Below are positions 18,473 to 36,474 of a stretch of 64,000 nt of DNA, one piece after another. This stretch comes from an uncultured Candidatus Saccharibacteria bacterium (GTDB lineage Bacteria; Patescibacteriota; Minisyncoccia; Phycocordibacterales; DATDWN01). Below the pieces are notes generated by a model. It saw only the letters and a list, made by a program, of their open reading frames with translations. It was not told the DNA's origin and searched no databases. Made by a program: the position numbers and the translations under genes. The stretch is taken from assembly GCA_964468795.1 (NCBI GenBank), contig CAYXWL010000001.1, positions 147,587 to 211,586 on the forward strand, written 5' to 3'. Position 1 is the first letter of the stretch, and each line of letters opens with the position of its first letter.

Positions 18473-18619
18473 AATTTAAATATTGTATAGAAACATTATG
18501 AAGCAGGCTTAAAATATTGTCTATTTTCTCAAATAATATTGAATATTGACTTTTTTTTAAAATAGGTTAGTATTGGCCTCTGTATCCCAGATTCCCTGGG
18601 AGGTTCTTTGGGAGGAAAG

Positions 18620-19483
18620 ATGAGACTCAAGTTTGTAATGAAAGTTCTCGCTCTGTTTTTGCTCGTTGTCCTCGTGGACATGAGCCGAGCTGAAGCGACC
18701 GGCATCGACGTGAACGTCTTCACTGCACTGGCACCCAACGCGTACGGCTCGCCGAGCTTTGCGGGCTGGCAGGCGAACGCCGTGACCTCGATGGAAAACG
18801 GCGGGGCCTCTCAGGGCACTGCCGGCACACCGACGTACTTCGAGACTGTCTCGAACATTACGTCGGATCAGGCCATCGTCACGGGCTTCCCGTCATGGAT
18901 GGGATCAGCTGACCCGGGCACGGTCTACGGCCCCGCGTTCGCAAGCGAACTCGGCAACCGCATGACGTTCCCTCTCTGGGTGAACGGCAATGGTAACCAG
19001 TTCGCAATTGGCGACCTCGGATTCGACGCAACCAGCACGGATCCGTTCAACGCACTTGCGTTCTCGTTCGCGCCTGGCGGGTACAACTACTCGTCGGCGT
19101 ACGTCGGACTCGATTACGGTGCTGACGGTGTGAAGGGCACGGCGGATGACAACTGGATCACGAGCGGCTCGAACACCCAACTCGTCAACGAGCTTTACGG
19201 CCGTGGCAGTGGCAATTCGTTTGCTGCCTACTGCCCGCTCTGCAGTCTCTCGAATCAGCAGACCGCAATCAACGATGCTGCGGCATATCCGGGAACGCCG
19301 TTCACGTTCACAGGTATGTACTACCTGTTGTCCGGGAACCAACGTCTCGGACAAGGATCAGCAACCTTCAATATCGGAGTTCCCGGTGGTGAAGGTACGG
19401 CGCCTGTTCCCGAACCGGCATCAATAGTGCTTCTGGGCACTGGCCTCCTCGGCACCTCGTTCCTTCGTCGCAAGAAAAGCTAA
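18620..19483 (+). CDS. PEP-CTERM sorting-signal protein (about 60% GC, compositionally foreign)
   Basis: Signal peptide, Gly/Ala/Thr/Asn-rich body, C-terminal VPEPASIVLLGTGLLGTSFLRRKKS (PEP motif + TM + basic tail); GGGAGGAAAG-ATG RBS; start taken at the second ATG (18620) because of the RBS. Confidence 0.7.
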   Translation: MRLKFVMKVLALFLLVVLVDMSRAEATGIDVNVFTALAPNAYGSPSFAGWQANAVTSMENGGASQGTAGTPTYFETVSNITSDQAIVTGFPSWMGSADPGTVYGPAFASELGNRMTFPLWVNGNGNQFAIGDLGFDATSTDPFNALAFSFAPGGYNYSSAYVGLDYGADGVKGTADDNWITSGSNTQLVNELYGRGSGNSFAAYCPLCSLSNQQTAINDAAAYPGTPFTFTGMYYLLSGNQRLGQGSATFNIGVPGGEGTAPVPEPASIVLLGTGLLGTSFLRRKKS

Positions 19484-21620: not shown

Positions 21621-21625
21621 CCTGT

Positions 21626-21650
21626 GGAGGATAGGAGAATTTCGATCCCT
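21626..21650 (+). other. att-like degenerate copy of the tRNA-Ser(GGA) 3' end (candidate attL)
   Basis: ggaggataggaga (13/13 identical to tRNA-Ser 35900..35912) then atttcgatccc vs ttcgaactcc in the tRNA; same orientation as the tRNA copy at the other end of the island. Confidence 0.4.
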
Positions 21651-21926
21651 ATTGGGTCAGTACCCCAGGATATAATATTTCACTTCGCTCATATTATATC
21701 TCAATCGGGCTTCGAATCTCACACAGAGCAATAACATTGCTCTGCTCTATCCTCCTTGTAAAAATTTCATTTTTTGCGGAGGGTATTAGACGAAGTTAGA
21801 ACCTCGTTAATGCTTTCAGATTACACTAAATTCAGCATTGTTAAAAGATGGTAAAAGAAAAATGGGCAAGCAACTTGATGCTCGCCCATCTAGGTTTTAG
21901 TCGAAGACTTTATTAAAGAAAGGGGT

Positions 21927-22739
21927 TCAGTGGTTAGCTGAACCCAGAACCATTTGAAATGCTCTCTTAAGATACAATCGAACCTTTTCGAGGTTAAGCT
22001 TGTCATTTTCGTCCCGGAGCTTTCCTTCGGCGTCAATCGATAGATTAGGAAATTCTTTGACCAACGGCTCGATTAAGCCCAGAGTTTCGCAACACAAACC
22101 GCCAGCGATGCCAATTCCCATTTCCGGGTAATCTCCTCTGACTTCACGCAGGTATTTTGTACCCTTGTTTTGGTCGAATGGTTGGCCTTTGCCACCGCTT
22201 GGGTCGATAAGAACCGCATCAACTAGCCAAGAGCAACAAGCTCTGTGGTCGTAAATCAAATGAATCAAACCTCCGAGATGACCAAGACCGTCAACCTCTG
22301 CGAGAACCCTTCCTCCCATTTGCACGACCAGAAACTTGTCGGGATGGGAGTCTTGGTAATTTCGCAATGCCGTTGCTTCTGGCCATCTAACATTGAGTTG
22401 AAAACCGTCAAAGTTCCCAGACCCAACCAGCTCGGTAATTTCGTAGAGTTCGTTTTGAAGTCGGTCGTGGTGGTCCGTGCTGTAATGAATCAGATTTAAT
22501 GCTCTTTCATTTTTCACGAATATTCCAGACACATCTTCCTTTTTCGGGTATCTGCCTGGATATTTATTGGTCATACCTGCCAGAGTTTTCGAACTCATCA
22601 GCACACCGACCATAAGACGATGTGTAGGTTTTTCTGGAACCATGTTCAACGCTTCAACCACCTCGGCGTTGGACATAAATCCAGTAATCCCTATGTACGG
22701 CCCCGTTTTGGCGACAACCCTGTTTCTTGTAAGGAACAT
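21927..22739 (-). CDS. TrpF-like phosphoribosylanthranilate-isomerase family protein (TIM barrel), orphan
   Basis: C-terminal half matches TrpF (VLIDPSGGKGQPFD…, IGIAGGL…, …IDAEGKLRDENDK…) and N-terminus has IGITGF; no other trp genes nearby; AGGAGG RBS; start taken at ATG 22739. Confidence 0.45.
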   Translation of the reverse strand: MFLTRNRVVAKTGPYIGITGFMSNAEVVEALNMVPEKPTHRLMVGVLMSSKTLAGMTNKYPGRYPKKEDVSGIFVKNERALNLIHYSTDHHDRLQNELYEITELVGSGNFDGFQLNVRWPEATALRNYQDSHPDKFLVVQMGGRVLAEVDGLGHLGGLIHLIYDHRACCSWLVDAVLIDPSGGKGQPFDQNKGTKYLREVRGDYPEMGIGIAGGLCCETLGLIEPLVKEFPNLSIDAEGKLRDENDKLNLEKVRLYLKRAFQMVLGSANH

Positions 22740-22809
22740 TAGAACCTCCTGAAAAGATACTGCAATATTTTCTGTAAAAAAGCAAAAAGAAAACCGAGTT
22801 GCCTCGGTC

Positions 22810-23346
22810 TTAATTTTTGAACAATTCTTCCATTTTATATAATGCCCGGACATTCGGCGGGTCGGTAACCAGCTCTCTGGCTTCGGCAATAGTCGCCCAT
22901 TTGGTGGTATGGAACTCTTTCGGGTCCACATTAAATTCCGAGCCATCAGTCGGAAACCGATACCACAAATCAAGGTGCTCCTTGCAAGGTTGGACCCGAT
23001 TGACGATTGGTGTAATGGTCAGAAGGAATGGTTTGATGTGGTTTTGAATGCGATTAGCCACCCCAAGCTCTTCTTCAATCTCTCGGTTTAAGGTCTGCAT
23101 CAAGGTCTCACCCCGGTCTATGTGACCGCCGGGTGAAAGCCATAGGCCAGATTTCTTGTGATGAACGATGAATACCTGCTTGGTATCTGGATTGTAAGGA
23201 AGAAAATAACAGCAGAAATGGCTCATGTTGCCGTCATCTCTGGTTAGCTGGCCTTGGGCCAGACGAGCTGACCAATAATCTGCAATAGCTTGATTGCAGA
23301 GCGATGGGTTGATTTCAGCCCCAATTTCAGTTTGTAAATTGTCCAT
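22810..23346 (-). CDS. Nudix hydrolase
   Basis: Nudix box GGHIDRGETLMQTLNREIEEELGV; start taken at ATG 23346 (GGAG RBS; the ORF-track start is TTG). Confidence 0.8.
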   Translation of the reverse strand: MDNLQTEIGAEINPSLCNQAIADYWSARLAQGQLTRDDGNMSHFCCYFLPYNPDTKQVFIVHHKKSGLWLSPGGHIDRGETLMQTLNREIEEELGVANRIQNHIKPFLLTITPIVNRVQPCKEHLDLWYRFPTDGSEFNVDPKEFHTTKWATIAEARELVTDPPNVRALYKMEELFKN

Positions 23347-23394
23347 GTTTTTCTCCAAAATTAAGATTACTCAAAATAATTTGTAATGCAACAT

Positions 23395-24375
23395 TTAAAA
23401 AAGAGAATTTCTAAACTCTTCAAAGTGTTCGGAAAGATTTTTAATGCGAGGGAAATCAGTTCCCAAAAACTTATCAACTCTGTGATTATCATTTAGATAA
23501 TGCTCACTTTCTGACCACAATCCGTGGATTGATTTGAGATAATATAACTTTAATCCTCTTGTTAACTCATCTTCGGATATGGGATAAGTTTTTCGGTATG
23601 AATCCATATATAATTTGGCACGGCTTATATTTTCTTCGCTCAAATCATCGCATAGAAAACTATACATCATACATTTAAATAATTCGTGTGTTCGTGGAGA
23701 ATAGCTGGTTTTTTCAAAGTCAAAAACCCACGAAATTTTATCGTTGCCACCAAAGAAAACATTATGGTCGGTGTAATCTCCGTGAATAAGATGGTCGCTT
23801 GATAAGTTCAAATCCTCATAAACAACTGTGTTCTCTTGAACCAGCTGTTTTTTCAGATTAAGGCTTTTCAAAGCCGATTCATCAAAATCGTCAAAATTTG
23901 TTTTCTTTTGAATTTCGTTTATGACCAGTTCTATTTTAGCCAAGCTTTTTTCCTTGTTCCATGGTTTAAATTTGCCTGAAACAGGCAACTTTGCATCTCT
24001 TCCTAACAAATGGATTTTGCCAAGCATTTCTCCAAGCGAGACAATAGCGGTTTCTGTTAATTCCTTTCCGCTCAACTGCTTATCCAACACAAAAGGAAAA
24101 AGTGCATAGCAACCATCTTCAAATGAAAAATATGTGCTTCCTTCTTTGTTGGTTATAGGAAGAATTACAGGAATATTACCGTCAGAAAAATATCTTTTTA
24201 CAGATTGAATTTCCTCCACCTTTTCTTTGGCATCTGGAGCGTATTGTTTGAGAAAATACCTCGTATCTCCATCAATGAGAATATGGTTTTCAGAAAGTGA
24301 ACCCTTCTTCACTTTTTCGTGATATTGAAGGTTTAGACCATATAAGTTGCTGGTATGTTTTAGCAGAGTATCCAT
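23395..24375 (-). CDS. APH/ChoK/FN3K-fold small-molecule kinase
   Basis: Brenner motif HGDYTDHNVFF and downstream VFDFE (DFG-like), 326 aa. Confidence 0.65.
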   Translation of the reverse strand: MDTLLKHTSNLYGLNLQYHEKVKKGSLSENHILIDGDTRYFLKQYAPDAKEKVEEIQSVKRYFSDGNIPVILPITNKEGSTYFSFEDGCYALFPFVLDKQLSGKELTETAIVSLGEMLGKIHLLGRDAKLPVSGKFKPWNKEKSLAKIELVINEIQKKTNFDDFDESALKSLNLKKQLVQENTVVYEDLNLSSDHLIHGDYTDHNVFFGGNDKISWVFDFEKTSYSPRTHELFKCMMYSFLCDDLSEENISRAKLYMDSYRKTYPISEDELTRGLKLYYLKSIHGLWSESEHYLNDNHRVDKFLGTDFPRIKNLSEHFEEFRNSLF

Positions 24376-24376
24376 A

Positions 24377-24778
24377 TTATTTCAAAATTTGAGGTATGAA
24401 ATCACGAGAAATTTTTCTGACTTGGGCCGAGGTTTTTCCTAAAATAGCAGATTTCATCAAGCGGTGTAAGCCATCTAAAATAAGCCAGCGACCTTTGTTT
24501 TCCATTATGTCTATGGGATGCACAAGGTCAGCTTTCATTGTTCTTTCGTATTCCTCCTTATGTGCTTCTGGATTATCTATAACTTCCTGTGGTTTGAGAT
24601 TATAAACCCCATTTTCCCAAAGGAAAGGAATATCAAAATGCCAAGTCAGCTCATCTGTACTGATTTCCTCTGGCCCCACTTCCAAAGCCCAGACTTTTTC
24701 TTCACTCCAGTCAAAATCAAAACCAACATCCTTGATGATTTGTGGAATTTCATTTGAATTGTTTTTTATTTCTTCCAT
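24377..24778 (-). CDS. hypothetical protein with ParB/Srx-like motif
   Basis: 133 aa; C-terminal …GRWLILDGLHRLMKSAILG… resembles the ParB/sulfiredoxin-fold DGxHR signature; translationally coupled to neighbours (TAATG overlap). Confidence 0.3.
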   Translation of the reverse strand: MEEIKNNSNEIPQIIKDVGFDFDWSEEKVWALEVGPEEISTDELTWHFDIPFLWENGVYNLKPQEVIDNPEAHKEEYERTMKADLVHPIDIMENKGRWLILDGLHRLMKSAILGKTSAQVRKISRDFIPQILK

Positions 24779-25311
24779 TATTTTTTATAAAATCCTGTAT
24801 CGGGGCAGGTTATCTGAATGAAAGCGTTTCGCAACGCCTCTTCCAAGCTGACTTCCCGTAGGATTGTTCCACCAGAATATGTGCCCCAAGTATCATTCGG
24901 CAGTTTTCCATATTCTTCTTCAATAATTGTCATCACATCGGAGTGTTCCATTTTGAGTTCGTCCATTTTCTTGAGAATAAAGTCTGGGACCTTTAATCCG
25001 CTTGAATAGCCGTAATACTCCTTGTCCTCAGTAATAATAACAGCCCAAGCTTCCTCATATATGTGCCCATATCGCTCTATAAGGCCACTTTCAAGACCTA
25101 TATAGTAATTTGCATCAGAGTGGCGAGATTTACTGTCCAACGCTCTGTTTTTTGCTCCATCAAAAGTTTGTTTGTCCCACGGAGTGTCTGGCATCAGCGA
25201 TTTGGCTCCGTAACTTTGTATTGAAACATCTTTATCGGCAAAAAACTGCTTGATGATTTTTTCAGCAATTTTTATTTTTCTATCACTTGATGAGCCGATT
25301 ACGAATTTCAT
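24778..25311 (-). CDS. YjjX/DUF84-like non-canonical NTP pyrophosphatase
   Basis: MKFVIGSSSDRKIKIAEKI…GAKNRALDS…YYIGLESGL pattern matching inosine/xanthosine triphosphatase (YjjX) family. Confidence 0.55.
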   Translation of the reverse strand: MKFVIGSSSDRKIKIAEKIIKQFFADKDVSIQSYGAKSLMPDTPWDKQTFDGAKNRALDSKSRHSDANYYIGLESGLIERYGHIYEEAWAVIITEDKEYYGYSSGLKVPDFILKKMDELKMEHSDVMTIIEEEYGKLPNDTWGTYSGGTILREVSLEEALRNAFIQITCPDTGFYKK

Positions 25312-25871
25312 TTTAGTGTCAAATGTTTTTTAAGTTTTTCCAATGCCAATTTTCTCATACTGAATGAGTTTTTTTCTTCGGCAGTCAGTTCACCAAAAGT
25401 TTTGGAATAGCCCTCTGGCTGGAATATAGGGTCCCAACCAAATCCAGTGCCTCTTGGTGATACAGTCGTTCCTTTTACTGCACCTTCAAAAAATTCAATG
25501 TTTCCGTCTAAATCAGAATGACCAATAATCGTTTTTGCTTCTGCGTTAAAATTTCCGAAAACAGTAATCATTTTATACAACCCATCGTTCCCGACAGTTT
25601 TCATAAACCATTTTATAAGAGGACCTGGCAAACCATTCATTGCTTCAAAATACAAAGATGTGTCCTCAACAATAAACTCACCCTTGTGATGTTTCTGGGC
25701 TTCTTCCAGCTTTGCCTTGATGATTTTGTGGGCATCAATTTCCTGTATTTCGGGAAGGTCAATATCCAATCCTTCTATAAAGTCGCCAAGAATTGCCTGA
25801 ACTTCTGCTAGCTTGCCTTTATTGCCAGTGAGAAAATAGAGTGGCGTCATATTAAGAATAATATAACACAA
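25308..25871 (-). CDS. RdgB/Ham1-family dITP/XTP pyrophosphatase
   Basis: LTGNKGKLAEV, EDTSL, NGLPGP, FGWDPIF motifs of Ham1/Maf-like ITPases; probable true start at the MTPLYF ATG (about 25850); 4-nt overlap with the downstream gene. Confidence 0.8.
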   Translation of the reverse strand: MCYIILNMTPLYFLTGNKGKLAEVQAILGDFIEGLDIDLPEIQEIDAHKIIKAKLEEAQKHHKGEFIVEDTSLYFEAMNGLPGPLIKWFMKTVGNDGLYKMITVFGNFNAEAKTIIGHSDLDGNIEFFEGAVKGTTVSPRGTGFGWDPIFQPEGYSKTFGELTAEEKNSFSMRKLALEKLKKHLTLK

Positions 25872-25903
25872 AAATTCATTTTACCCCATTATTCATATTT
25901 TGA

Positions 25904-26221
25904 TTAAGGTAAAAAATTTATTCTTATATAATCCCAAAAACTATATGCATAATCAATTATTTCTACACCAGTACTAGTAGGAGGTTGACCACATTTTGGA
26001 CATAGAAGTGCTTTATCGCTATCATATCTTATTCTACAAGGCTCACAGTAGCAGAGGTTGATACGAGTAGGCTTGTGTCGCATTTTTAAGTCTCTGAAAT
26101 GCTCATATGTATATTTAGACTCAAATTTTAGACCGCATACAGGGCAATTTTCTAGTTTCAATTTATTCTTGAACTCGTCTCTGCAACTAACACATGCTTG
26201 TATAAATCCGATTAGTTCCAT
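25904..26221 (-). CDS. double zinc-ribbon protein (four CxxC pairs), hypothetical
   Basis: C11xxC14, C26xxC29, C58xC60xxC63, C74xxC77. Confidence 0.4.
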   Translation of the reverse strand: MELIGFIQACVSCRDEFKNKLKLENCPVCGLKFESKYTYEHFRDLKMRHKPTRINLCYCEPCRIRYDSDKALLCPKCGQPPTSTGVEIIDYAYSFWDYIRINFLP

Positions 26222-26273
26222 ATTTTGCTATTATGCGTTTAATAATTGAAGGATAAGAAATGGTAGGGTTAAA

Positions 26274-26837
26274 TTATTTTGTAAACTTAAGTGAGGAAAT
26301 GATTATTCCTTCTTCTGTCATTGATTGGGTTCCATTCTCATCCCACATCAAAGAAATGACTATGCGATATTTATTATTTGGTGTATTTACGACAACCCAA
26401 GTACCGCCATCCATAGTAATCGCTTCTTGCCCGTCAATATTTAAAACATTGTAACCCTCTGAGAGGTCTTTCTTCGCATCATTTTTTAGCCATTCAAGAG
26501 GTGTAACACCTTTATTATTTTTAGACATCTCTATATGTATTCCACCATATGGGTCGCTTTTGCTTTCTAAAATTGATTTTGGCCAGATGTATAACTCAAC
26601 GGGTTCAAACTTATTTTCCACAAACATATGAGGCGGATACTGAAATGAAAAACCAACATCGCTTTTATAGGTCAGAAAACTTTTTTCATATTCATAATAT
26701 TCGTCTGAACCAACAATACTAGGTATGGGATTATGAGTTACTTCAGCGATTTTTGTCTCTTTATGTCTACTGTAGTAAAAAGTAAATGATATTACGCATA
26801 GAATGATAACAATTGATATAAGTATTTTTTTATTCAT
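26274..26837 (-). CDS. membrane-anchored secreted hypothetical protein
   Basis: N-terminal TM/signal anchor (MNKKILISIVIILCVISF); start moved to ATG at 26837 to avoid overlap with res. Confidence 0.4.
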   Translation of the reverse strand: MNKKILISIVIILCVISFTFYYSRHKETKIAEVTHNPIPSIVGSDEYYEYEKSFLTYKSDVGFSFQYPPHMFVENKFEPVELYIWPKSILESKSDPYGGIHIEMSKNNKGVTPLEWLKNDAKKDLSEGYNVLNIDGQEAITMDGGTWVVVNTPNNKYRIVISLMWDENGTQSMTEEGIIISSLKFTK

Positions 26838-26866
26838 ATTTTGATTCAGTATGCAACTTATTACTT

Positions 26867-29095
26867 CTACAACTCCAAATGTTCCCAGTCTGTCCAATCA
26901 TTCTCTTTCAAATTTTTACCATCGCCTTTGTAGACCATCCAACGGCCAGAAAAGTGGCTAGGGTCTGTATTAGCAACAATACCACCAAAGAGTTTCTGCT
27001 TCTTGCCAGCTCTGGCTGTGTAGGCCACCAAACCGCTTGATTTGGCTCCAAAATCGGCTAAATAGGCTCCGTGAGGGTCAAAAAGGCCGATACTGCCATC
27101 TTTCATCATTACCACGAAATCAACATAGAACGGAGCCATTTCATCGCCTAATTTATAAGGCACGGCAAAGAAGGTCCCGTCTCTTTCTCCGTTTTTAAAC
27201 CACCATTCCACCTTGTTATTTTTCTTATCCAAAAATTCAATAAACGCTTTTTCAGACTGCCAGCGTTTATCTGAAAAGAATGGCTCCATAACAGATTTAT
27301 TGACCTCCATTTCTTCGTAATTTTCGCCGAAGACCATTTTCTCTGGCACATCCCATTCACTTTGGACCAGCTCGTTGTTGCGTTTTTCCGTAGACGAGAT
27401 ATAGGTGATTTTGGCATCGTCAATGACTGCTTCAAAAAGAGATTTGTTATCCTCGCTCAAAACAGTGTTGATTATCTCTTGGAATTTTTCCAATTTCGGC
27501 ATACCAAGCTCTTTATCAAAAAACTGGTAGATTGACTCTTTGAGACGACCTACTGACCTATCTTCTGGATGAAATGGTGAAAGGTTTCGGTAAATGAAAT
27601 AGTCAAATAGTCTCTGTAAATCAGCATCACTTCCCATATCAACGAGCACCGTAGCTTTAATGTGTTCACCAGCGATAGTGTCTATGTTTTCTGTTCGCCA
27701 ATCGGAAATGAAAGCCGAATGGACTTTCTGATTTTTCAGTTTGATTTTATCCGCCAGTTTTGACTGTTTGGCTTTCTCCAAAAAGAGAGAAGTGAAAAGT
27801 GGGCTCAAGCGGGTCTGCTCACGATGGCGTTTGCTATGGACCGATGAAAGATTTATCGGCTCATATTTTGGCGACCTGTTGCTGATATGGATAACCACAT
27901 AATCCCGCCCGATGTCTTCCTTGATTTCAATGCCTTCAAGGTTGGTGTAAACATAAGCATAATTGAGCATATCGTCCTTGTAGTAGCCGATTTCTGGTTC
28001 TGGCACACGCATAATCCTGCCAATGGTTTGAATAGAGAAAATGGGACTGGACCATTCTCGGAAAAGGACCAAAATTTGAGCTCTTGGGCAATCCCAACCC
28101 AGAGCGATAGCTTGTTTGAAAATAAGGACTTCTACTTCGCTGTCGTTGCGTTTGATATTGTCGGAATTTTCTTTATTCTCTGCCAAGTAGAAAGCTAGCT
28201 TGCCATTTTTGGTGGTGATATTGTGTTTGTCTGCCAGTATCTTTACAAGCATTTCTTGTCTGTCATCATCACCTTGACCACGCCTGTCTGGAAGCTGGAT
28301 TAGGAGAAGTGGATTAACTGAAATTTTACCCGCTTTGTATTTCTTGGCTAGGTCTTCTCGTTTTTTTAAGGCAATGTCCAAAATAACTTCATCAGAGCTG
28401 TTAGCCAGTTCGCTTTTGACTATATCTGAATTGTTTTTCTGGACAACATTTTTGAAATTCTCATTGAGGACCACCGCTTTCTTTATCATCTCCTCGGCTT
28501 TGACCTCGGCAATGTCCACGCTAACAATCTTGTCTGGGTTAGCCATTACAGGAGTAGCGGAAACTTCAATAGTCAAATCCGGCTTGATAGCGGAAATAAG
28601 GTTTTGTGAGGTTTCTGCTTGAGCGTGGAAATGACTCTCGTCTATGATGAGAATAATTTTTCTGTCAGCTTCCCGTGTTCGGCTGATTATATTTGAAAGA
28701 TTGTTGTCTTGCTCGTTATCTCGTATGTAAATGTTGCCGTCCTGTCTGATACTTTCCCAGTTGAAAAAGAGAACCTCGTTTTCATCTATTTGCCTGTCGT
28801 TTAAGTCTTCAAAGAAAGAACATTCCATCGCCCGTGATTTTTCAAAATACAGCTCAATTTTTTCTTTGCTCTGCTCGTGGAGCTGACGAGGAGCGGTCCA
28901 GATGAATGAGCAAGGGGTATGTCTTTTGTCATCGGCAAATCTTGTTAGAAATTCAGCCACCATTATGGTCTTGCCCGAACCAGTAGGAGCTTTGAAAACT
29001 AGCTTTTTCCCATCACTAATTTTCAAAAGACGAACTGCATCATCTAGCAATTCTTGGGTATGTTCATCTTGATATGTTGTTAGCTTAAAAGCCAT
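26867..29095 (-). CDS. res: Type III restriction endonuclease Res subunit (SF2 helicase-like)
   Basis: Walker A KAPTGSGKT and DExH box IIDESH; immediately downstream of mod and translationally coupled (29097/29095). Confidence 0.7.
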   Translation of the reverse strand: MAFKLTTYQDEHTQELLDDAVRLLKISDGKKLVFKAPTGSGKTIMVAEFLTRFADDKRHTPCSFIWTAPRQLHEQSKEKIELYFEKSRAMECSFFEDLNDRQIDENEVLFFNWESIRQDGNIYIRDNEQDNNLSNIISRTREADRKIILIIDESHFHAQAETSQNLISAIKPDLTIEVSATPVMANPDKIVSVDIAEVKAEEMIKKAVVLNENFKNVVQKNNSDIVKSELANSSDEVILDIALKKREDLAKKYKAGKISVNPLLLIQLPDRRGQGDDDRQEMLVKILADKHNITTKNGKLAFYLAENKENSDNIKRNDSEVEVLIFKQAIALGWDCPRAQILVLFREWSSPIFSIQTIGRIMRVPEPEIGYYKDDMLNYAYVYTNLEGIEIKEDIGRDYVVIHISNRSPKYEPINLSSVHSKRHREQTRLSPLFTSLFLEKAKQSKLADKIKLKNQKVHSAFISDWRTENIDTIAGEHIKATVLVDMGSDADLQRLFDYFIYRNLSPFHPEDRSVGRLKESIYQFFDKELGMPKLEKFQEIINTVLSEDNKSLFEAVIDDAKITYISSTEKRNNELVQSEWDVPEKMVFGENYEEMEVNKSVMEPFFSDKRWQSEKAFIEFLDKKNNKVEWWFKNGERDGTFFAVPYKLGDEMAPFYVDFVVMMKDGSIGLFDPHGAYLADFGAKSSGLVAYTARAGKKQKLFGGIVANTDPSHFSGRWMVYKGDGKNLKENDWTDWEHLEL

Positions 29096-29096
29096 A

Positions 29097-30791
29097 TTAT
29101 TTTTTGAAAATACGCCTATATACCCGCAAAATAACTTCGGGTATCGGGGCTACTGTTACTTTTTCTTTGACATCTTCAAATTCTTCTTCAAAGGTGTCAT
29201 CGCCGAGAGAGAAAATGTAAACACTCCATTTTCCGCCAATTTTGGCGATGTCTTTTTTGAGAGACGAGATAGAACCTTCGTCAAAAAGAATGGCTGTATA
29301 TTGCTTTTCATTCTTGAAAATTTTTATGGCCATGGTTTCCTTCACTTCCTCAAAAGTGTTTTCTCTGACACAGAGCATCTCCGTAGCTTCTCTGGTTAGA
29401 GTCTCCTTGTTTTTATCGTTTGGCTCGGCTTCTACGAAAGCCGTGCGGAAGTATTTCAAATTGCTAGGTATGCCAGTTATATCTTTGTAATCTTTATGAC
29501 CAGCGATAACAGATTTAATTCGTGGATAGCATACTTCTGTTGCGATGCCATTTTCATTGTTGGTGCAGAGAATAAATTGGCGTAATCCGTTATCTCTTTT
29601 ATTTAGCAGTGAGACAGCGTGTCCAGTAGTTCCACTTCCAGCAAAAAAGTCCAAAATCACCGCATCCTTTTTATCTTTAGCTGTGGCTAATAGACATTCT
29701 TCAACCGCATATAATGACTTTGGGAAAGGAAACATTGTGCCAGTCAGCCCATTAACCATCTTTGAACCATACTCGTTTGCATCATATTTAGGTCCAACCC
29801 AAACAGTCTTATATGGAGCCTCATCTTTGGAGCGATATATTTCAAACCTGCCTTTAGAAGTCTTCTTTATGTGCAACTCTGAAATTATTTCTTCAACAGT
29901 ATTTCTTGAATAAGACCATTTCCTTTCAATACTGTTTATGTCTATAGGCCAAACCTCAAATACACCCTTTTTTATTTCAGTAGTTTGTTTTTTGGGATGA
30001 AATTTCTCATCTGCCACTTCGCCTACACCAATAATTTTTTCGCCAGATACTATAAATGGGTAAAAACAGGTTTTTGCTGTATGACGAGGGGAATTGCTTC
30101 CGTCAACTCTGAAATTTCTCACCAGAGTTTCTTCACGAAGTGCATTACTTATATATTTTTCCTTGGCATCTGGATAAACAAAAACAGCATACTCGTGATT
30201 ATATGAAAAATTTTTACCCTGAACTCCTCGGGGATTGTGAACCACTGAAATTGAATCAACTTTTTTGCCTACAAAAATTTGTTTAAGCAGGAGTACCAGA
30301 TTAGCGTGTTCGTTTTCATCAATGGCACAAATCAGACAACCATTCTTTTTCAAAAGATTTTTCGCAAGGACCAATCTTCTCTCCATCATGCTCAACCATT
30401 TGCTATGTCTGTATGAGTCATCTTTATCTACATAATTATTGTTATATTTCCAATTTTTTGCTCCCGTATTGTAAGGCGGGTCAATATAAATAACATCAAT
30501 CTTGCCTTTATGTGTGTAGTTTAATACAGAAAGAGCGTGGTAATTATCTCCTTCAATAAGTAGGTTTGTGGGGGTATTTTTATTTTTGAAAATATGCTTA
30601 TTTTTTACCTCTTTCAAAACAGGCAATTCAGTATTGCATTGCTCAACAACATCTTCTATCTTTTCCTCCCAAACCAATCCATATTTTTTGCGTTTTCGTA
30701 AACGCTCAATTTCTGCAACAAATTGCTCTTTGGTCCAATTACCATATTTATCTGTTTCCACCACAATAGGTGATTGTAATTTTTCAGGCAT
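29097..30791 (-). CDS. mod: Type III R-M Mod subunit (beta-class N6-adenine DNA methyltransferase)
   Basis: DPPY motif IV (IYIDPPYNTG) precedes motif I (LDFFAGSGTTGHA), the beta-class order typical of Type III Mod. Confidence 0.8.
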   Translation of the reverse strand: MPEKLQSPIVVETDKYGNWTKEQFVAEIERLRKRKKYGLVWEEKIEDVVEQCNTELPVLKEVKNKHIFKNKNTPTNLLIEGDNYHALSVLNYTHKGKIDVIYIDPPYNTGAKNWKYNNNYVDKDDSYRHSKWLSMMERRLVLAKNLLKKNGCLICAIDENEHANLVLLLKQIFVGKKVDSISVVHNPRGVQGKNFSYNHEYAVFVYPDAKEKYISNALREETLVRNFRVDGSNSPRHTAKTCFYPFIVSGEKIIGVGEVADEKFHPKKQTTEIKKGVFEVWPIDINSIERKWSYSRNTVEEIISELHIKKTSKGRFEIYRSKDEAPYKTVWVGPKYDANEYGSKMVNGLTGTMFPFPKSLYAVEECLLATAKDKKDAVILDFFAGSGTTGHAVSLLNKRDNGLRQFILCTNNENGIATEVCYPRIKSVIAGHKDYKDITGIPSNLKYFRTAFVEAEPNDKNKETLTREATEMLCVRENTFEEVKETMAIKIFKNEKQYTAILFDEGSISSLKKDIAKIGGKWSVYIFSLGDDTFEEEFEDVKEKVTVAPIPEVILRVYRRIFKK

Positions 30792-30794
30792 GAT

Positions 30795-30849
30795 GACTAT
30801 GAGTACCTACACCACATAATGTATCACAAAAATAGTGGTACTCATAGTC
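30795..30849. promoter_or_regulatory. C-box-like operator: perfect 13-bp inverted repeat GACTATGAGTACC…GGTACTCATAGTC
   Basis: Arms at 30795..30807 and 30837..30849 separated by 29 nt, in the mod / C-gene divergent region; GACT…AGTC symmetry as in known controller-protein operators; ends 38 nt upstream of the HTH gene. Confidence 0.45.
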
Positions 30850-30886
30850 CGTCGCCTTATAGACATCAGACCTCTAGGCTTAAGGC

Positions 30887-31108
30887 ATGAGCAAGAGTAG
30901 CCCCATTTTAAAGAAATTTGGAAAGCGAGTAATAGAACTCCGCTTACAAAAAGGCTTCACTTCCCAAATTGCTTTAGCTAATAAAGCCAATATGGACCGA
31001 ACCTATATTGGTGGCATTGAGCGAGGTGAAAGGAATATCTCCTTGGTTAATATTGAAAAGCTGGCAAAGACGCTTGGTATCAGTTTGGAAGAATTGTTCA
31101 GACTCTAA
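30887..31108 (+). CDS. XRE-family HTH protein, controller (C-protein)-like
   Basis: 73 aa, Cro/C1-type HTH (…QIALANKANMDRTYIGGIERGERNISLVNIEKLAKTLGISLEELF). Confidence 0.75.
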   Translation: MSKSSPILKKFGKRVIELRLQKGFTSQIALANKANMDRTYIGGIERGERNISLVNIEKLAKTLGISLEELFRL

Positions 31109-31139
31109 ACAAGGTGTATTCTTAAGTGAAAAGAACGCC

Positions 31140-32354
31140 ATGATTTCTAGCAATCTAGAACGCCATTTTCATAGCTTTATTGAGGAGACAAATCTTCTTA
31201 ATTTTTCTAAAGGTTTAGCCGAATATTTGGAGTATGTATTCAGTGTGCCAGAACTAAAAAATGTTTTTTCACAACAGCTCGGGGAAAGAAATGCTGATTA
31301 TGCAAAATTGAATGAGCTTGCTGAAAAAAATCTTGCTGAAATTAAGGAGGCAAAAACAAAACTTATTAAATGTTTAAAAAAGAGAAAAATTTATATTGAT
31401 GACTTGAATCGTATTTTTACTCACCCCCACAACACAGGAAGGAATTTTTTTGAAGAGCTGGATGCTTTTGAAAAAGGAGATGGTTTGTATTCTAGTATGT
31501 CATTGGCTGATGTAATTGATAATTATCTTTTTGATATGGCAGTAAATTTACTCAATGCTGGTTATCAAGAAGATGTTGAGGAATTTTTAGCTAGACCGGA
31601 CGATTATACTGTGAATAAGGTATGTCGTAATGATTATATTATGATTGATGGTCATCCAGGGTCTTTTGTGTTCTCTAGGGCATATTTTGAGCGTCAAAAT
31701 ATGAAAAAGTTTATTGAACAAGGTAGAGTATTAAAAACTTGGGGAGAATTTGAAAAACTTTATCAATTTAGACAAGGATATAAAGAAAGCTTGGGTATAC
31801 ATGACCCTATGAAAGATTGGGAGCATGGCCCGGGAGAATTTGGTATTGATGAGGATTTGATATATATAGCCAGAATCCATAATGAATTGAATAACTTGGT
31901 AAAAAAACATGGACCATTTCCGCGAGAAGATAACCCCTTGGAATATTTGTCGCAGAGTAAATTTGTCCAACCAGTCAAAACGGTTCACAATATTTTGATG
32001 CTTGTCGCATCAAGTAACAAAAAGGAAGAAAAAAATGAATCCGGTCTTTGGATTTCTAAAAATAAGACCACAGGTGAGTATTATTTTGATGATAACAAAA
32101 TCCATTTTCCTAGCCCAAATGCAAAATATGTAAAAATTTTTGAAACCGTGTATGAAATTATCCCGAAAGGTGGTCGCATTTCTTATTCCCAAATTACTAA
32201 ATATAAGAAGTCAGAAGTGCAGAGGGCGTTGACTGGAGAAAATGCCAACTTTTTTCATTATGTTAAATCGGCAAGACGTACTCCCCAGAAAGGCATCCCA
32301 CTTTTTCATGCATCAAGCGACGGAAAAGAGCTGATTTTCAATAATCAGCGTTAA
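31140..32354 (+). CDS. hypothetical 404-aa protein downstream of the C-protein gene (candidate restriction/abortive-infection effector)
   Basis: No recognisable motifs; start taken at ATG 31140 (the longer ORF-track start overlaps the HTH gene); followed by terminator 32384..32412. Confidence 0.5.
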   Translation: MISSNLERHFHSFIEETNLLNFSKGLAEYLEYVFSVPELKNVFSQQLGERNADYAKLNELAEKNLAEIKEAKTKLIKCLKKRKIYIDDLNRIFTHPHNTGRNFFEELDAFEKGDGLYSSMSLADVIDNYLFDMAVNLLNAGYQEDVEEFLARPDDYTVNKVCRNDYIMIDGHPGSFVFSRAYFERQNMKKFIEQGRVLKTWGEFEKLYQFRQGYKESLGIHDPMKDWEHGPGEFGIDEDLIYIARIHNELNNLVKKHGPFPREDNPLEYLSQSKFVQPVKTVHNILMLVASSNKKEEKNESGLWISKNKTTGEYYFDDNKIHFPSPNAKYVKIFETVYEIIPKGGRISYSQITKYKKSEVQRALTGENANFFHYVKSARRTPQKGIPLFHASSDGKELIFNNQR

Positions 32355-32383
32355 CTCATCTCATCTCGTTTGTGGATTATCTG

Positions 32384-32412
32384 AAAAATCACCGCTCCAG
32401 TGGTGATTTTTT
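32384..32412 (+). terminator. rho-independent terminator
   Basis: aaaatcacc-gctccagt-ggtgatttt followed by a T-run. Confidence 0.6.
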
Positions 32413-32603
32413 GGCTACGAATAAAGAAAAAATATTTAAACAGAAGAATCCAGAGAAGTACAGACGACCTATCAGACTTGAAATAATGGCTTTAAGCCAA
32501 GCTTTTCCTTGTACGACTTGGAACGCCCAAAACATGCAAGCCAATTTTTTGCTTGACCTGTCCCAGGCGTTCGGGATGGTTCAAGCAAAAAGCGGGCTTC
32601 ACT

Positions 32604-32780
32604 ATGTTACCAGAAGAAGCCATTAAAGAATTTAAAATTCTTTACAAAAAAGTTTTTGGTATAGAGCTCACAGATAGTGAGGCAATTTTTCGTGCCAATA
32701 ATCTTTTGAGACTCTACAAAGTCATTTACAAGGCATCTCCTGCGAACATGGTCAAAGGAACGCAAAATGGCCAGGTATGA
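32604..32780 (+). CDS. small hypothetical ORF
   Basis: 58-aa ORF (MLPEEAIKEFKILYKK…) in the island; weak support. Confidence 0.2.
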   Translation: MLPEEAIKEFKILYKKVFGIELTDSEAIFRANNLLRLYKVIYKASPANMVKGTQNGQV

Positions 32781-33177
32781 CCCACGAAAAATTTCTCAAC
32801 ACAAAAGTTACACAATCAAAGAATTGTCAGAGCTTTTGGAAATGAGTGAAAAAACCTGCGGTCGGTGGATTGAGCAGGGGTTGCCGACTGTTCCAGGTAG
32901 CCACAAGCCGATTCTCATACTAGGTGATGATGCAAAAATTTTTATTAGAAACAGGAATATTAAGGTCGTAATTAAGTTAAAACGCCATGAGTTTAATTGT
33001 TTTAAATGTAAGTGCCCGAGACGGGCCAAGAAGGGTTCAATAGGTGTATCCGGGAACATAAAAAGGGGGTTGTGCAGTGTTTGCAACTCAAAAATGTGCA
33101 AGACAATTCACCCTACCAAAAAGGACTATAAGATACCGCCTACTCCTACACAAATGTCCATGTTTAACAATATTTAA
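32767..33177 (+). CDS. HTH + zinc-ribbon DNA-binding protein (excisionase/regulator-like)
   Basis: YTIKELSELLEMSEKTCGRWIEQGLP helix-turn-helix, then CxxC…CxxC; immediately upstream of the recombinase genes. Confidence 0.45.
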   Translation: MARYDPRKISQHKSYTIKELSELLEMSEKTCGRWIEQGLPTVPGSHKPILILGDDAKIFIRNRNIKVVIKLKRHEFNCFKCKCPRRAKKGSIGVSGNIKRGLCSVCNSKMCKTIHPTKKDYKIPPTPTQMSMFNNI

Positions 33178-33190
33178 TCTTATCACTATA

Positions 33191-34288
33191 ATGACAAATT
33201 TCAGCTACAAAAATGAGCAAATTAAGAGGCAGTTTTTTGAGCATCTAAAAGGGGCCGCTGGCTTCGCCGATGAGTCCATAGATAAGTTTGCGGAAGCGGT
33301 TTATCAATGGCAGATTTTCAGCGGAGATGAGGATTTTGAAACTTTCAATAAAGAGAAGGCATCTAAATTCTGTGAATGGCTCAAAACAAAAGAGGCAAAG
33401 ACCAGTTCTGGCAAGCTGTCTTTGCCAACCCAATATAATTATCTCCGTAGAGTTAAGAAGTTTTTCACTTGGCTTACTGAACAACCAGATTACAGAAAAA
33501 GTATTCGTAAAACAGATGTGGATTTTTTGAGATTATCCAAAAAGGATGCTCGTATTGCTACTTCCGGCACAACAAAAAGGATACCGACTTTTGACGAAGC
33601 TAGAAAGGTAATAGAAAGCATAGAAATTGAAAATGAAATTGACCAACGAGATAGGGCCATCCTTTCCTTTGCCCTTATTACTGGTATGCGTATTTCAGCC
33701 ATTTCAACTTTGAGAATGAAGAATTTTGACAGAGAAAGCGAATTGATTGACCAAAATCCTGGCGATGGAGTGCAGACCAAATATTCAAAAAAGATACTCA
33801 CTACTTTTTTCCCGATAGGATGGGATGGACCAAAAAAATACTTTCTTGAATGGTACGACTATCAACTTGCTCGAGGAGCAAAACCAAATGAACCGATTTT
33901 TCCTTCAACTAAAAAAGGATTTTCAGAAAAAAGTTTTAGCAAGACGCTTGTGAGCGAGGATTTTTGGAGCAGTTCCGGTGGTGCAAGAAAAATCTTTGAG
34001 AAAAGGTGTATAGATGCTGAAGTGCCATATTTTCATCCTCACTCTTTCAGACATTTGATTGTGTCTGTAATGAGCAAGACCAGGTTGACGGAAGAAGAAA
34101 AGAAAGCAGTCAGTATGAATCTTGGCCATGACAATGTGGGCACCACTTTCGGCTCGTATGGCTATGGTGGTATGAGTTTGCATGATGCTGTAAATATCGT
34201 TAAAAAAATCACTTTAAACCAAAATGACGATATTCAGATTTCATCGGACGAAAGAGATGTTTTGCTAAAACTATTGAAGAAATTATGA
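33191..34288 (+). CDS. tyrosine-type site-specific recombinase / integrase
   Basis: C-terminal catalytic region with HPHSFRHL (HxxR) and LGH…Y; SAM-like N-domain. Confidence 0.8.
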   Translation: MTNFSYKNEQIKRQFFEHLKGAAGFADESIDKFAEAVYQWQIFSGDEDFETFNKEKASKFCEWLKTKEAKTSSGKLSLPTQYNYLRRVKKFFTWLTEQPDYRKSIRKTDVDFLRLSKKDARIATSGTTKRIPTFDEARKVIESIEIENEIDQRDRAILSFALITGMRISAISTLRMKNFDRESELIDQNPGDGVQTKYSKKILTTFFPIGWDGPKKYFLEWYDYQLARGAKPNEPIFPSTKKGFSEKSFSKTLVSEDFWSSSGGARKIFEKRCIDAEVPYFHPHSFRHLIVSVMSKTRLTEEEKKAVSMNLGHDNVGTTFGSYGYGGMSLHDAVNIVKKITLNQNDDIQISSDERDVLLKLLKKL

Positions 34289-34305
34289 TATAATTAAGTA
34301 TCACT

Positions 34306-35925: not shown

Positions 35926-35985
35926 AGGGATTGCTCCCTTACCCGCTTTCCAAGCGAGCGCACTAGACCACTATGCGAACCCTCC
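35899..35985 (-). tRNA. tRNA-Ser (anticodon GGA), class II
   Basis: GGAGGGT/ATCCTCC acceptor stem, anticodon loop TTGGAAA, long variable arm, T-arm AGGAG-TTCGAAT-CTCCT. Confidence 0.7.
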
Positions 35986-36027: not shown

Positions 36028-36474
36028 CTAATACTCGTCTATCACTATCTTCTTTTGTTTCATCATTACATTCCAACCATTTGGTTTTGCCAAAAGCTCA
36101 CCTAAATTTTTTGGAATTACCTGCCATCTTAGACCGTATTTATCTATACACCATCCGCACTGAACCTCCTTCCCTTCCTTTGTAAAATAATTCCAATAAT
36201 TATCAATCTCATTCTGATCATCGCATTCTATAGTCAAAGCAAAAGCATCGTTAAAGCTGTCATGCGGAATTTCAGTATTCATTATTGAATACTTTTGGCT
36301 AAATATGTGTGCTTCGCATATTTGTGTTTTACCGCTAGGAGTTTCTCCTATATTCTGAACATTTCCTGCAGTAAAAACTTCCCCAAAAACTTCTTTATAA
36401 TACTCAAGAATATTTGAAATATCTCCTCCGTCCACAGAAAACCACAATGATGGAACGATTTTATTTTGATTCAT
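36028..36474 (-). CDS. PhnB-like VOC (glyoxalase-fold) protein
   Basis: IVPSLWFSVDGG… and DKYGLRWQV signatures of the PhnB/3-demethylubiquinone-MT-like family. Confidence 0.55.
   Translation of the reverse strand: MNQNKIVPSLWFSVDGGDISNILEYYKEVFGEVFTAGNVQNIGETPSGKTQICEAHIFSQKYSIMNTEIPHDSFNDAFALTIECDDQNEIDNYWNYFTKEGKEVQCGWCIDKYGLRWQVIPKNLGELLAKPNGWNVMMKQKKIVIDEY

Follow-up and report, generated by a model that had tools for sequence, protein, structure and literature searches.

A strain-variable integrative island of an uncultured Saccharibacteria bacterium carries a mosaic of enzyme genes that are each widespread

Results

The window, the 64,000-nucleotide stretch of DNA that was analysed, contains a 14.1-kb insertion (positions 21783–35896) at the 3′ end of a tRNA-Ser(GGA) gene. 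Its borders were defined by comparison with a contig representing the empty site (L094), which lacks the island, matches each flank with 100% identity and joins window position 21782 straight to 35897; two other contigs, L096 and L097, carry the island. The left border is formed by the attL core, an 8-bp direct repeat (TGCGGAGG, 21775–21782). The second identical 8-mer, the attR core (35897–35904), lies inside the 3′ end of the tRNA-Ser(GGA) gene, which ARAGORN placed at 35898–35985 on the minus strand, so that core and gene together occupy 35897–35985. About 70 nt and the att core were also found at the end of another element, L008. The empty site and the att repeats show that the island is strain-variable and mobile, the latter as the preliminary description of this DNA had proposed, whereas its left boundary is position 21782 and not the tRNA pair at ~19.6–19.9 kb.

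This arrangement resembles that of tRNA-targeting integrative islands with restriction-modification (R-M) systems, which likewise are inserted at a tRNA 3′ end, are flanked by a short direct repeat, have integrase genes adjoining the tRNA, vary between strains with an empty site seen, and carry mosaic cargo of deviating GC content. The present island differs from them in its Patescibacteria (CPR) host, in combining a tyrosine integrase with a large serine recombinase, and in its cargo, which consists mostly of small nucleotide-hydrolase and kinase genes as opposed to the classical virulence, resistance or defence cassettes.

The recombination module (32767–35925, plus strand) encodes an HTH_17 protein (32767–33177), the tyrosine integrase (33077–34288; Phage_integrase, 9.3e-14 in the profile search) and the large serine recombinase (34306–35925; Resolvase, Recombinase and Zn_ribbon_recom domains, 3.2e-21). 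On the same strand, profile matches identified a C-protein-like HTH protein (30887–31108; HTH_3, 2.6e-13) and an uncharacterised ORF of 408/448 aa (the pair spanning 30887–32354), whose sole domain match is a weak one to RNase_HII (2e-4); neither PADLOC nor PHROG gave a match for these two. A Type III R-M system (26867–30791, minus strand; Res 26867–29095, Mod 29097–30791) starts a co-directional array. PADLOC recovered both subunits (REase_III, 6.4e-18; MTase_III, 6.1e-72). The empty site and the att repeats confirmed the earlier placement of the six genes below on a mobile island beside this system. A Zn-ribbon ORF of 105 aa and a 207-aa ORF (25904–26897, minus strand) form a secondary insertion that separates Res from the Ham1 gene. 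The pair is bracketed by an imperfect 50-nt repeat (25889–25938 and 26830–26879) and is found in neither L008 nor L102, two related elements in which Res adjoins Ham1.

Six further minus-strand genes encode a Ham1/RdgB protein (25308–25850), a DUF84/YjjX-type protein (24778–25311), a 133-aa protein (24377–24778), a kinase (23395–24375), a Nudix hydrolase (22810–23346) and a 270-aa protein (21927–22739). All were present where they had previously been located, except for the start of Ham1, which had been put at 25871; this is an upstream TTG, and the metagenome gene calls use the ATG at 25850. The coupling described for the first four genes was borne out, with an ATGA overlap between Ham1 and DUF84, TAATG between DUF84 and the 133-aa ORF, and a 1-nt spacer ahead of the kinase gene. 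The ribosome-binding sites of genes 5 and 6 were also seen upstream, as GGAG and AGGAGG. The module is mosaic: the GC contents of the last two genes are 0.465 and 0.466 (the latter for Nudix), against 0.35–0.40 in the first four. Terminator-like hairpins followed by T-runs lie on the minus strand between the Nudix and 270-aa genes (22790–22811, 9-pair stem) and 3′ of the 270-aa gene (21860–21891, 13-pair stem). No minus-strand terminator was found from the Mod start (30791) down to the Nudix end (22811). Because of this terminator-free stretch and the hairpin before the 270-aa gene, the array is described as nine genes plus one, reaching upstream into the R-M system, and not as the discrete six-gene operon proposed before.

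Pfam searches, AF2 models and fold searches assigned the six products to the Ham1, DUF84/YjjX, ParB/Srx, APH-fold, Nudix and TrpF-like groups, in agreement with the original calls; only the FN3K flavour attributed to the kinase was not upheld. Ham1, DUF84 and the 133-aa protein belong to the island backbone, and the other three to a variable slot. Ham1 is a non-canonical purine NTP pyrophosphatase by family (PF01725, 4.5e-41; TIGR00042, 131.9 bits, below the cut-off of 145.35), and DUF84 is of the inosine/xanthosine triphosphatase type (PF01931, 6.9e-25). The catalytic motifs are intact, including TGNKGK, EDT, FGWDPIF and SMR in Ham1, and the Nudix box (GHIDRGETLMQTLNREIEEELGV at residue 74) in the Nudix hydrolase (PF00293, 9.6e-15). 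The kinase is an APH/ePK-like small-molecule kinase (PF01636, 3.3e-17) with the motifs HGDYTDHN and DFE. It scored 13 bits against the fructosamine-kinase (FN3K) model, below the cut-off of 22.4, and its nearest named models, type II homoserine kinase, CotI/YtaA and SrkA, were each far under their cut-offs. Two of its 212 homologues are fused to a Nudix domain; some pairwise coupling of kinase and Nudix may therefore exist.

Pfam, NCBIfam and PDB sequence searches with the 270-aa protein gave no match. It has 605 homologues; among the 120 listed, none had a precomputed Pfam domain and the source names were those of Patescibacteria lineages. Its AF2 model (pLDDT 92) is a (βα)8 TIM barrel of an uncharacterised family, with the TrpF structures 1v5x and 1nsj as top fold matches (E 8e-8, TMt 0.79). 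The protein shares with TrpF the phosphate-binding loops at β7 (GIAGGL) and β8 (SIDAEG) and an invariant Asp following β6 (LIDPSGG). Unlike TrpF, it lacks the catalytic Cys, is ~65 residues longer, shows no sequence-level match and has no trp genes nearby; no invariant Cys was found across 31 sequences of the family. Organisms carrying this family generally lack tryptophan biosynthesis.

The 133-aa protein had no Pfam match, and its AF2 model together with the fold search supports a ParB/Srx fold. Like members of the DGxHR branch (the free serine kinase SerK, the N-domain of SbnI and sulfiredoxin), it has a D-G-x-H-R motif at the predicted nucleotide-binding strand–helix junction, its DGLHR aligning with DGVHR of SbnI. 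It differs from them in its small size (127–133 aa in the family), in lacking an HTH, a C-terminal domain and the ParB GERRxRA box, and in a conserved N-terminal half peculiar to the family (GFDFxWSExKVW, WHFDIPFLWE). Among the loci retrieved, the family is confined to CPR and DPANN.

The gene set is not conserved. The six-gene order was found solely in contigs of the same organism, and each of 80 ParB-like loci contained at most two of the five remaining families, at variance with the 'unusually complete' nucleotide-centric system that had been envisaged. Elements L008 and L102 share with the island the serine recombinase, tyrosine integrase, Mod, Res, Ham1, DUF84, the ParB-like gene, the terminal ~70 nt and the att core (the Ham1–DUF84 stretch being 80.8% identical in nucleotides to that of L008), and their variable slot instead holds an AAA_18 kinase, an ANT(2″)-like nucleotidyltransferase, an NDT-like gene and a second DUF84. 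Homologues of three of the genes are solitary in housekeeping contexts, a finding that the preliminary description itself had named as counting against it. This applies to the nearest DUF84 homologues (L101, L103 and L104; 79–84% identity), to the kinase, and to the TrpF-like protein, whose homologues lie beside DnaJ, SecDF, TsaDE or IF3.

Discussion

Each of the six enzyme genes is widespread in its own right, and together they form a patchwork, not a conserved new nucleotide-based defence system. The reading that we favour, with a probability of roughly 0.6, is that they are cargo of a strain-variable integrative island, providing independent nucleotide house-cleaning or salvage functions and accessory enzymes. 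The backbone consists of the recombination module, the Type III R-M system and then Ham1, DUF84 and the ParB/Srx-fold mini-protein, and the distal end is a variable cargo slot, filled here by the APH-fold kinase, the Nudix hydrolase and, behind a terminator, the TrpF-like barrel. The genes make up no single pathway or immune system, and the enzymes, whose family matches and intact motifs support their being active, most likely act independently of one another. Ham1 and DUF84 would hydrolyse purine NTPs that have undergone deamination (ITP/XTP), the Nudix protein presumably hydrolyses another nucleoside-diphosphate-X substrate, and the kinase would phosphorylate some small molecule; their joint benefit may be to sanitise or recycle scavenged nucleotides and metabolites in a salvage-dependent organism. 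The pyrophosphatases belong to the same Pfam families as the house-cleaning enzymes RdgB/Ham1/ITPA, YjjX/DUF84 and MutT-type Nudix, with signatures intact. They differ in scoring under the NCBIfam equivalog cut-offs and in clustering on a mobile element, whereas in well-studied bacteria such genes are chromosomal and scattered.

The earlier view, that all six genes belong to a single undescribed defence system based on nucleotide-signal processing, is largely refuted by the comparative data, and we consider it highly improbable. The genes do run in one direction and lie close together on a mobile island next to R-M, and the Nudix protein weakly matches the PADLOC candidate PDC-S07 (7.4e-10). 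They also share domain types with nucleotide-centric conflict and CBASS-like systems, of which Nudix, ParB/Srx, kinase and NTPase domains are reportedly accessory parts in the framework of Burroughs et al. 2015. However, profile and PADLOC searches found no nucleotide synthase or cyclase as signal generator and no effector domain, and a sensor, a conserved neighbourhood and a PADLOC model match are likewise absent; at this locus PADLOC returned R-M and the weak Nudix match only. Moreover, the gene set is confined to one organism, sister elements fill the slot differently, every family is scattered, and gene 6 is preceded by a terminator. Still less credible is the proposed Amadori route, in which the kinase and the TrpF-like barrel would convert a ribosylamine to a ketosamine and then to a ketosamine phosphate. 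TrpF is the top fold match of the barrel and the kinase is a member of the APH/ChoK/FN3K superfamily, but the FN3K score and those of the other named kinase models are sub-cut-off, and the barrel family does not conserve the catalytic Cys of TrpF. In addition, the two genes have the Nudix gene and a terminator between them, and they were never together in the other contexts examined.

A narrower conflict-related role, in which the Ham1–DUF84–ParB-like trio serves the Type III R-M system or the mobile element, is unlikely in our view. The trio might be an accessory that senses or degrades NTPs, or the ParB-like protein could be an NTP-regulated nuclease for exclusion, anti-defence or maintenance. 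A functional tie may exist, because the trio stands behind Res in three related elements (the window, after the secondary insertion; L008; L102) and L021 is similar (Res, two genes, ParB-like, RIO kinase); the terminator-free Mod-to-Nudix stretch points the same way. However, the three elements are related by descent and are therefore not independent co-occurrences, neither R-M nor recombinase genes are near most of the ParB-like loci, and SecA lies within three genes upstream in eight loci, immediately so in six. The two closest ParB-like homologues adjoin serine recombinases, one of them also a Dam-type MTase, and a recombinase lies within 10 kb in 14 of 77 loci, an enrichment that is not significant. 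ParB/Srx domains in conflict systems have been reported as NTPases and DNases (PMC5512222), and the C-terminal half of the ParB-like protein is matched by the phage family phrog_17560 (6e-9), but IMG/VR contained no relatives and PADLOC gave no match. That the ParB/Srx-like gene is semi-autonomous and spreads horizontally, as a putative selfish nuclease or promiscuous partner domain with incidental neighbours, is quite unlikely. It would fit the 55–85% identity between CPR bacteria and DPANN archaea, with archaeal sequences intermixed with bacterial ones (archaeal–bacterial identity 0.59, bacterial–bacterial 0.61), although binning errors in metagenome-assembled genomes could inflate this interdomain spread. 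It would also fit the lack of a ParB-like gene downstream of the closest DUF84 homologues and the highly heterogeneous neighbours and fusion partners, of which the fusion partners (GNAT, ATP-grasp, SDR, S51 peptidase, MGMT, ASCH, deaminase and Nudix) give no specific pointer to nucleotide metabolism. Against it, the 43 invariant positions of the 127–133-aa core, a sign of strong purifying selection, suggest a cellular enzymatic role. Enrichment of nearby Nudix, kinase and phosphatase genes suggests functional neighbourhoods (nucleotide-type enzyme genes within ±4 genes, 41/549 versus 15/891, odds ratio 4.7, with families chosen partly post hoc), and the same enrichment agrees with the favoured reading.

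Under the favoured reading, in which the six genes are independently acting cargo of the island, what is left of most interest is the ParB/Srx-like family, which is uncharacterised. Our guess is that the protein might bind NTPs or take part in phosphotransfer through its DGLHR motif. Kinases recur beside the ParB-like gene, though they are non-orthologous (APH, RIO and P-loop).

Island borders and integration site

The six genes had been described as lying in a mobile island beside a Type III restriction-modification (R-M) system, and this context was borne out by an empty-site contig, direct repeats and recombinase genes. The empty-site contig (L094), found via the flanking 148-aa gene, joins window positions 44012-35897 directly to 21782-15455, with 100% identity in both stretches. 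This comparison shows that 14.1 kb, corresponding to window positions 21783-35896, has been inserted; the insertion is present in two contigs from sister samples (L096 and L097). An 8-bp direct repeat, TGCGGAGG, occurs at both borders (21775-21782 and 35897-35904), and the latter copy falls within the 3′ end of tRNA-Ser(GGA). The tRNA-adjacent genes encode a large serine recombinase (34306-35925; Resolvase, Recombinase and Zn_ribbon_recom domains, 3.2e-21), a tyrosine integrase (33077-34288; Phage_integrase, 9.3e-14) and an HTH_17 protein. The element has a recombinase at one end, a tRNA site with direct repeats and an empty site in a close relative, the features by which an integrative genomic island is recognized, and all six genes fall within its borders. 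As a whole it belongs to an already known type, the genomic island that targets a tRNA gene and brings along R-M and accessory genes. Being sharply delimited and polymorphic in the population, with empty and occupied sites in related samples, it is useful for studies of gene flow in CPR bacteria.

Gene organization and transcription units

All six minus-strand ORFs are present, encoding Ham1 (25308-25850), DUF84 (24778-25311), a 133-aa ParB-like protein (24377-24778), a 326-aa kinase (23395-24375), a Nudix protein (22810-23346) and a 270-aa TrpF-like protein (21927-22739). For Ham1, the gene itself stood and its start did not: independent metagenome gene calls begin at an ATG at 25850, and the 25871 given in the preliminary description is an upstream TTG. 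The proposed coupling of the first four genes is visible in the sequence as an ATGA overlap, a TAATG overlap and a 1-nt spacer, and GGAG and AGGAGG ribosome-binding sites precede genes 5 and 6, as had been noted. The mosaic base composition is equally evident: GC content lies between 0.35 and 0.40 in genes 1-4 and rises to 0.465 and 0.466 in genes 5 and 6.

A terminator-like hairpin (22811-22790) lies between the Nudix and 270-aa genes and another lies 3′ of the 270-aa gene; no convincing minus-strand terminator was found between the start of Mod (30791) and the end of the Nudix gene. These positions define an array of Mod-Res-p207-Zn ribbon-Ham1-DUF84-ParB-like-kinase-Nudix, followed by one gene with a terminator of its own. 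Drawing the boundary at six genes is arbitrary. The adjacent Mod and Res genes constitute the Type III R-M system (PADLOC MTase_III, 6.1e-72; REase_III, 6.4e-18).

The interval between Res and Ham1 (25889-26897) holds a Zn-ribbon 105-aa ORF and a 207-aa ORF with a weak PsbP_2 match, both of which are missing in two sister elements (L008 and L102), where Ham1 comes directly after Res. The pair lies between the two copies of an imperfect 50-nt direct repeat (25889-25938 and 26830-26879), suggesting that it represents a secondary insertion. At 30887-32354, a C-protein-like HTH_3 gene, transcribed divergently from Mod, overlaps the 408/448-aa ORF that comes after it. PADLOC and PHROG had no counterpart for this ORF, whose one match, to RNase_HII, was weak (2e-4). 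Similarity between this ORF and the 461-aa ORF at the corresponding position of L102 was undetectable; it may encode a variable, C-controlled nuclease.

Comparison with sister elements and other loci

The six-gene order is not conserved: in the neighbourhoods that we examined (80 genome loci, 6 metagenome loci and 9 further contexts), the set was confined to this organism. In each of the 80 genome loci, at most two of the other five families lay within 10 kb of the ParB-like gene, and a kinase of the window type was never among them. The order Mod-Res-Ham1-DUF84-ParB-like recurred in a single one of these loci, L008, which, together with the metagenome contig L102, represents a sister element of the window island. 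Common to all three elements are the serine recombinase, the tyrosine integrase, Mod, Res, Ham1-DUF84 (80.8% nucleotide identity) and the ParB-like gene, the last being fused to ASCH in L008 and L102. At the L008 end, the one compared, the terminal ~70 nt and the att core match the left end of the window island. In the stretch from the ParB-like gene to the end of the element, L008 and L102 encode an AAA_18 P-loop kinase, an ANT(2'')-like nucleotidyltransferase and an NDT-like protein, and L008 also has a second DUF84 gene in this interval; beyond the element, L008 runs into the core genes RuvX and PilM. The comparison of the sister elements thus resolves the window module into three backbone genes (Ham1, DUF84 and ParB-like) and three variable-slot genes (kinase, Nudix and TrpF-like), a split that agrees with the GC step.

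DUF84 homologues with 79-84% identity are solitary in three further loci (L101, L103 and L104). The preliminary description had itself named scattering of the families as counting against a single six-gene unit, and scattered is how we found them, with DUF84, kinase and TrpF-like genes each occurring alone elsewhere.

Ham1, DUF84, Nudix and kinase proteins

Pfam and NCBIfam profile searches upheld the calls for four of the six proteins, namely Ham1, DUF84, the APH-fold kinase and Nudix. Ham1 matched PF01725 (4.5e-41, 141.2 bits; cut-off 22.5) with its TGNKGK, EDT, FGWDPIF and SMR motifs intact, and scored below the cut-off of the NCBIfam equivalog TIGR00042 (131.9 versus 145.35 bits). The DUF84/NTPase_I-T protein matched PF01931 (6.9e-25, 88.2 bits; cut-off 25) and was under the NCBIfam equivalog cut-offs (60 versus 175). 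The Nudix protein matched PF00293 (9.6e-15, 55.2 bits; cut-off 21.1) and has a complete Nudix box, GHIDRGETLMQTLNREIEEELGV, at residue 74, as tested with the consensus GX5EX7REUXEEXGU.

The kinase matched PF01636 (3.3e-17, 63.5 bits; cut-off 23.2), with HGDYTDHN at residue 198 as the HxDxxxxN catalytic loop and DFE at 219 as the DFx metal-binding motif. Its nearest named relatives, the type II homoserine kinase, SrkA and CotI/YtaA models, all scored far under their cut-offs. An antibiotic-kinase reading was rejected, the APH(9) AMR model scoring 17 of the 680 bits required. Among 212 kinase homologues, those whose contexts were examined stand alone near RecJ/RuvX/PilM or trigger factor/ClpP. 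Two of the 212 (P0285 and P0356) carry an N-terminal Nudix fusion, 24-37% identical to the window Nudix protein, which hints at occasional kinase-Nudix coupling.

The TrpF-like barrel

The 270-aa protein had no Pfam or NCBIfam match, PRAI included. Sequence and profile searches against the PDB gave nothing meaningful, and no TrpF appeared in the profile search at E<=10. Its model (pLDDT 92) is a (βα)8 barrel, the closest folds to which are those of TrpF (1v5x, E 8e-8, TMt 0.79; 1nsj, E 2.9e-7, TMt 0.74). In TrpF, the catalytic Cys at the end of β1 acts as the general base. Among 31 family members of the 270-aa protein, no Cys is invariant or nearly invariant, and β1 reads YIGVTGF; the TrpF catalytic Cys is therefore missing. 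By the family alignment and the model, an invariant D179, in LIDPSGG, lies after the sixth strand and may correspond to the catalytic Asp that follows β6 in TrpF. There are 605 homologues, the examined ones standing alone near DnaJ, SecDF, TsaDE/RNase Y or IF3/L20. The earlier domain calls were thus for the most part correct, the exceptions being the FN3K flavour of the kinase and any suggestion that the barrel is a genuine TrpF.

The ParB/Srx mini-protein

The 133-aa protein had no Pfam match, including ParBc, at E<=0.1, and its sole NCBIfam match was to SbnI (3.2e-3, 16.9 bits; cut-off 350). A profile of its family also matched SbnI (3e-3), with DGLHR aligned to DGVHR; in this motif D102, H105 and R106 are invariant and G103 is nearly so. 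In a Foldseek search with the AF2 model (pLDDT 87), the top 50 matches were all ParB/Srx proteins, and the predicted α+β core fold, combined with the conserved Arg-containing motif that binds nucleotides in this superfamily, agrees with the ParB/Srx-like call. As to canonical ParB traits, the protein has no GERRxRA CTP box and no HTH or further domain, and no ParA gene is adjacent. The DGxHR motif, which it has in common with SerK/SbnI and Srx, suggests that the ParB-like protein might bind NTP or carry out phosphotransfer. ParB/Srx domains in conflict contexts are reported to have NTPase and DNase activity (PMC5512222). Our literature search for ParB/Srx with ASCH, or for Patescibacteria with Ham1, Nudix and salvage genes, found nothing specific, the yield being limited to general remarks on NTPase and DNase roles of ParB/Srx.

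The family comprises 812 homologues (the best 120 listed being 66-99% identical), and its core is strongly constrained, with 43 invariant positions. The 80 genome loci come from many CPR phyla and DPANN archaea. In a neighbour-joining tree of these copies (L007-L086), the archaeal sequences, from MAGs of Nano-, Woese-, Pace-, Aenigm- and Micrarchaeota, branch among those of CPR bacteria, which implies repeated interdomain transfer or MAG mis-binning. Archaeal-bacterial identity (0.59) equals bacterial-bacterial identity (0.61) within error. From this interspersion and these identities, the family would be an accessory gene that moves horizontally and keeps its core under strong constraint. A scan of IMG/VR for relatives returned none.

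The two closest non-identical homologues (L107:150-5289 and L108:30-4078) both lie beside large serine recombinases. In one, a HIT-Nudix-ParB-like arrangement adjoins a Dam-type methyltransferase and DUF6996/6997; in the other, the gene is preceded by an APH kinase without significant similarity to the window kinase. SecA lies three or fewer genes upstream of the ParB-like gene in 8 loci and directly upstream in 6.

Fusion partners of the ParB-like domain are very heterogeneous: ASCH, cytidine/dCMP-type deaminase, Nudix, GT4, serine hydrolase, GNAT, ATP-grasp, SDR, S51 peptidase, MGMT, SET, HD, ANT-like nucleotidyltransferase, transposase and others. The diversity that emerged in a wider survey weakened the idea, drawn from early ASCH, deaminase and Nudix fusions, that they point to cytidine or modified-nucleoside salvage. 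We also compared genes within ±4 of the ParB-like gene with more distant genes of the same loci. Nudix genes were over-represented nearby (OR 3.3, p 0.005), as were histidine phosphatases (OR 3.8), small P-loop kinases (6 versus 0) and the pooled nucleotide-type families (41/549 versus 15/891, OR 4.7). These statistics are suggestive only, because the choice of families was partly post hoc, its seeds being neighbours already observed, and because related elements do not count as independent.

Explanations for the gene array

We favour, at a probability of roughly 60%, the reading in which an integrative island carries the region as mosaic cargo, consisting of independent house-cleaning/salvage and accessory enzymes rather than of a pathway or an immune system. 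The variable slot and the solitary homologues are consistent with it, and islands of this kind seem to move enzymes of nucleotide house-cleaning and salvage between organisms reliant on scavenged nucleotides. The order shared with the sister elements would also fit a functional tie of the backbone trio to R-M or to the element; we regard such a tie as unlikely. The interspersed tree would suit a semi-autonomous or selfish ParB-like gene; we hold this to be quite improbable. More speculative, and distinctly unlikely, is that the strongly conserved ParB/Srx-fold protein (127-133 aa), moving between CPR and DPANN and carried on serine-recombinase islands behind R-M, is an NTP-using enzyme or NTP-gated nuclease. 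With interchangeable partners (non-orthologous kinases, Nudix, HIT, Ham1 and DUF84 hydrolases, ASCH), it would then lie at the centre of an undescribed module of fluid composition that serves nucleotide-dependent modification or conflict in ultra-small symbionts.

That all six genes form a conflict system processing a nucleotide signal, as first proposed, is very improbable. The R-M neighbourhood fits such a role, and PADLOC recognized, in the six genes and their neighbours, the Type III R-M system together with a weak match of Nudix to the candidate PDC-S07. Pfam and PADLOC gave no nucleotide cyclase, synthase or effector domain in any of the island ORFs scanned, and matches to PHROGs were confined to Nudix families and one family of unknown function (the C-terminal half of the ParB-like protein). 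The proposal thus has neither a nucleotide-generating enzyme with an effector nor a conserved neighbourhood across unrelated genomes. A new multi-gene nucleotide-based immune system would, if true, be of large import; the comparative evidence does not support it. The Amadori route, joining an FN3K-type kinase to TrpF, is hardly credible: the barrel does resemble TrpF in fold, and the FN3K flavour of the kinase was not sustained, PF03881 scoring below its cut-off (13 versus 22.4 bits, E 0.06) and matching an N-terminal stretch only. The modest value of the locus lies in three things: an island cleanly shown to be polymorphic in a CPR genome, the ParB/Srx mini-protein, and the barrel resembling TrpF. 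Two sizeable uncharacterized families, the CPR/DPANN mini-protein with its interdomain spread and the barrel without the TrpF Cys, are here placed structurally and are tractable biochemical targets.

Chromosomal surroundings

A 16-nt tRNA-like repeat at 21623-21638 was considered as attL and dropped, as it lies outside the insertion in the empty-site contig, the true border being the 8-bp repeat at 21775-21782. It is a degenerate copy (15/16 nt) of the tRNA-Ser(GGA) 3′ end, ~140 bp beyond the left border, and also occurs in L094; an element that once integrated at this same site and was then excised probably left it as a scar. Just beyond the right border, the chromosome carries a 3-dmu-9_3-mt/glyoxalase-like gene (36028-36474) and a second Nudix gene (36556-37071), so the host already has island-independent Nudix functions. 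In the chromosome flanking the sister element, a LAGLIDADG_3-domain ORF (L008:18548-19225) lies beside tRNA-Leu. In the window, a gene for a PEP-CTERM-motif protein (18608-19483; 9.5e-7), unusual for a Patescibacteria-like genome, adjoins a tRNA-Gly/tRNA-Ser pair within a stretch of locally high GC (0.51).
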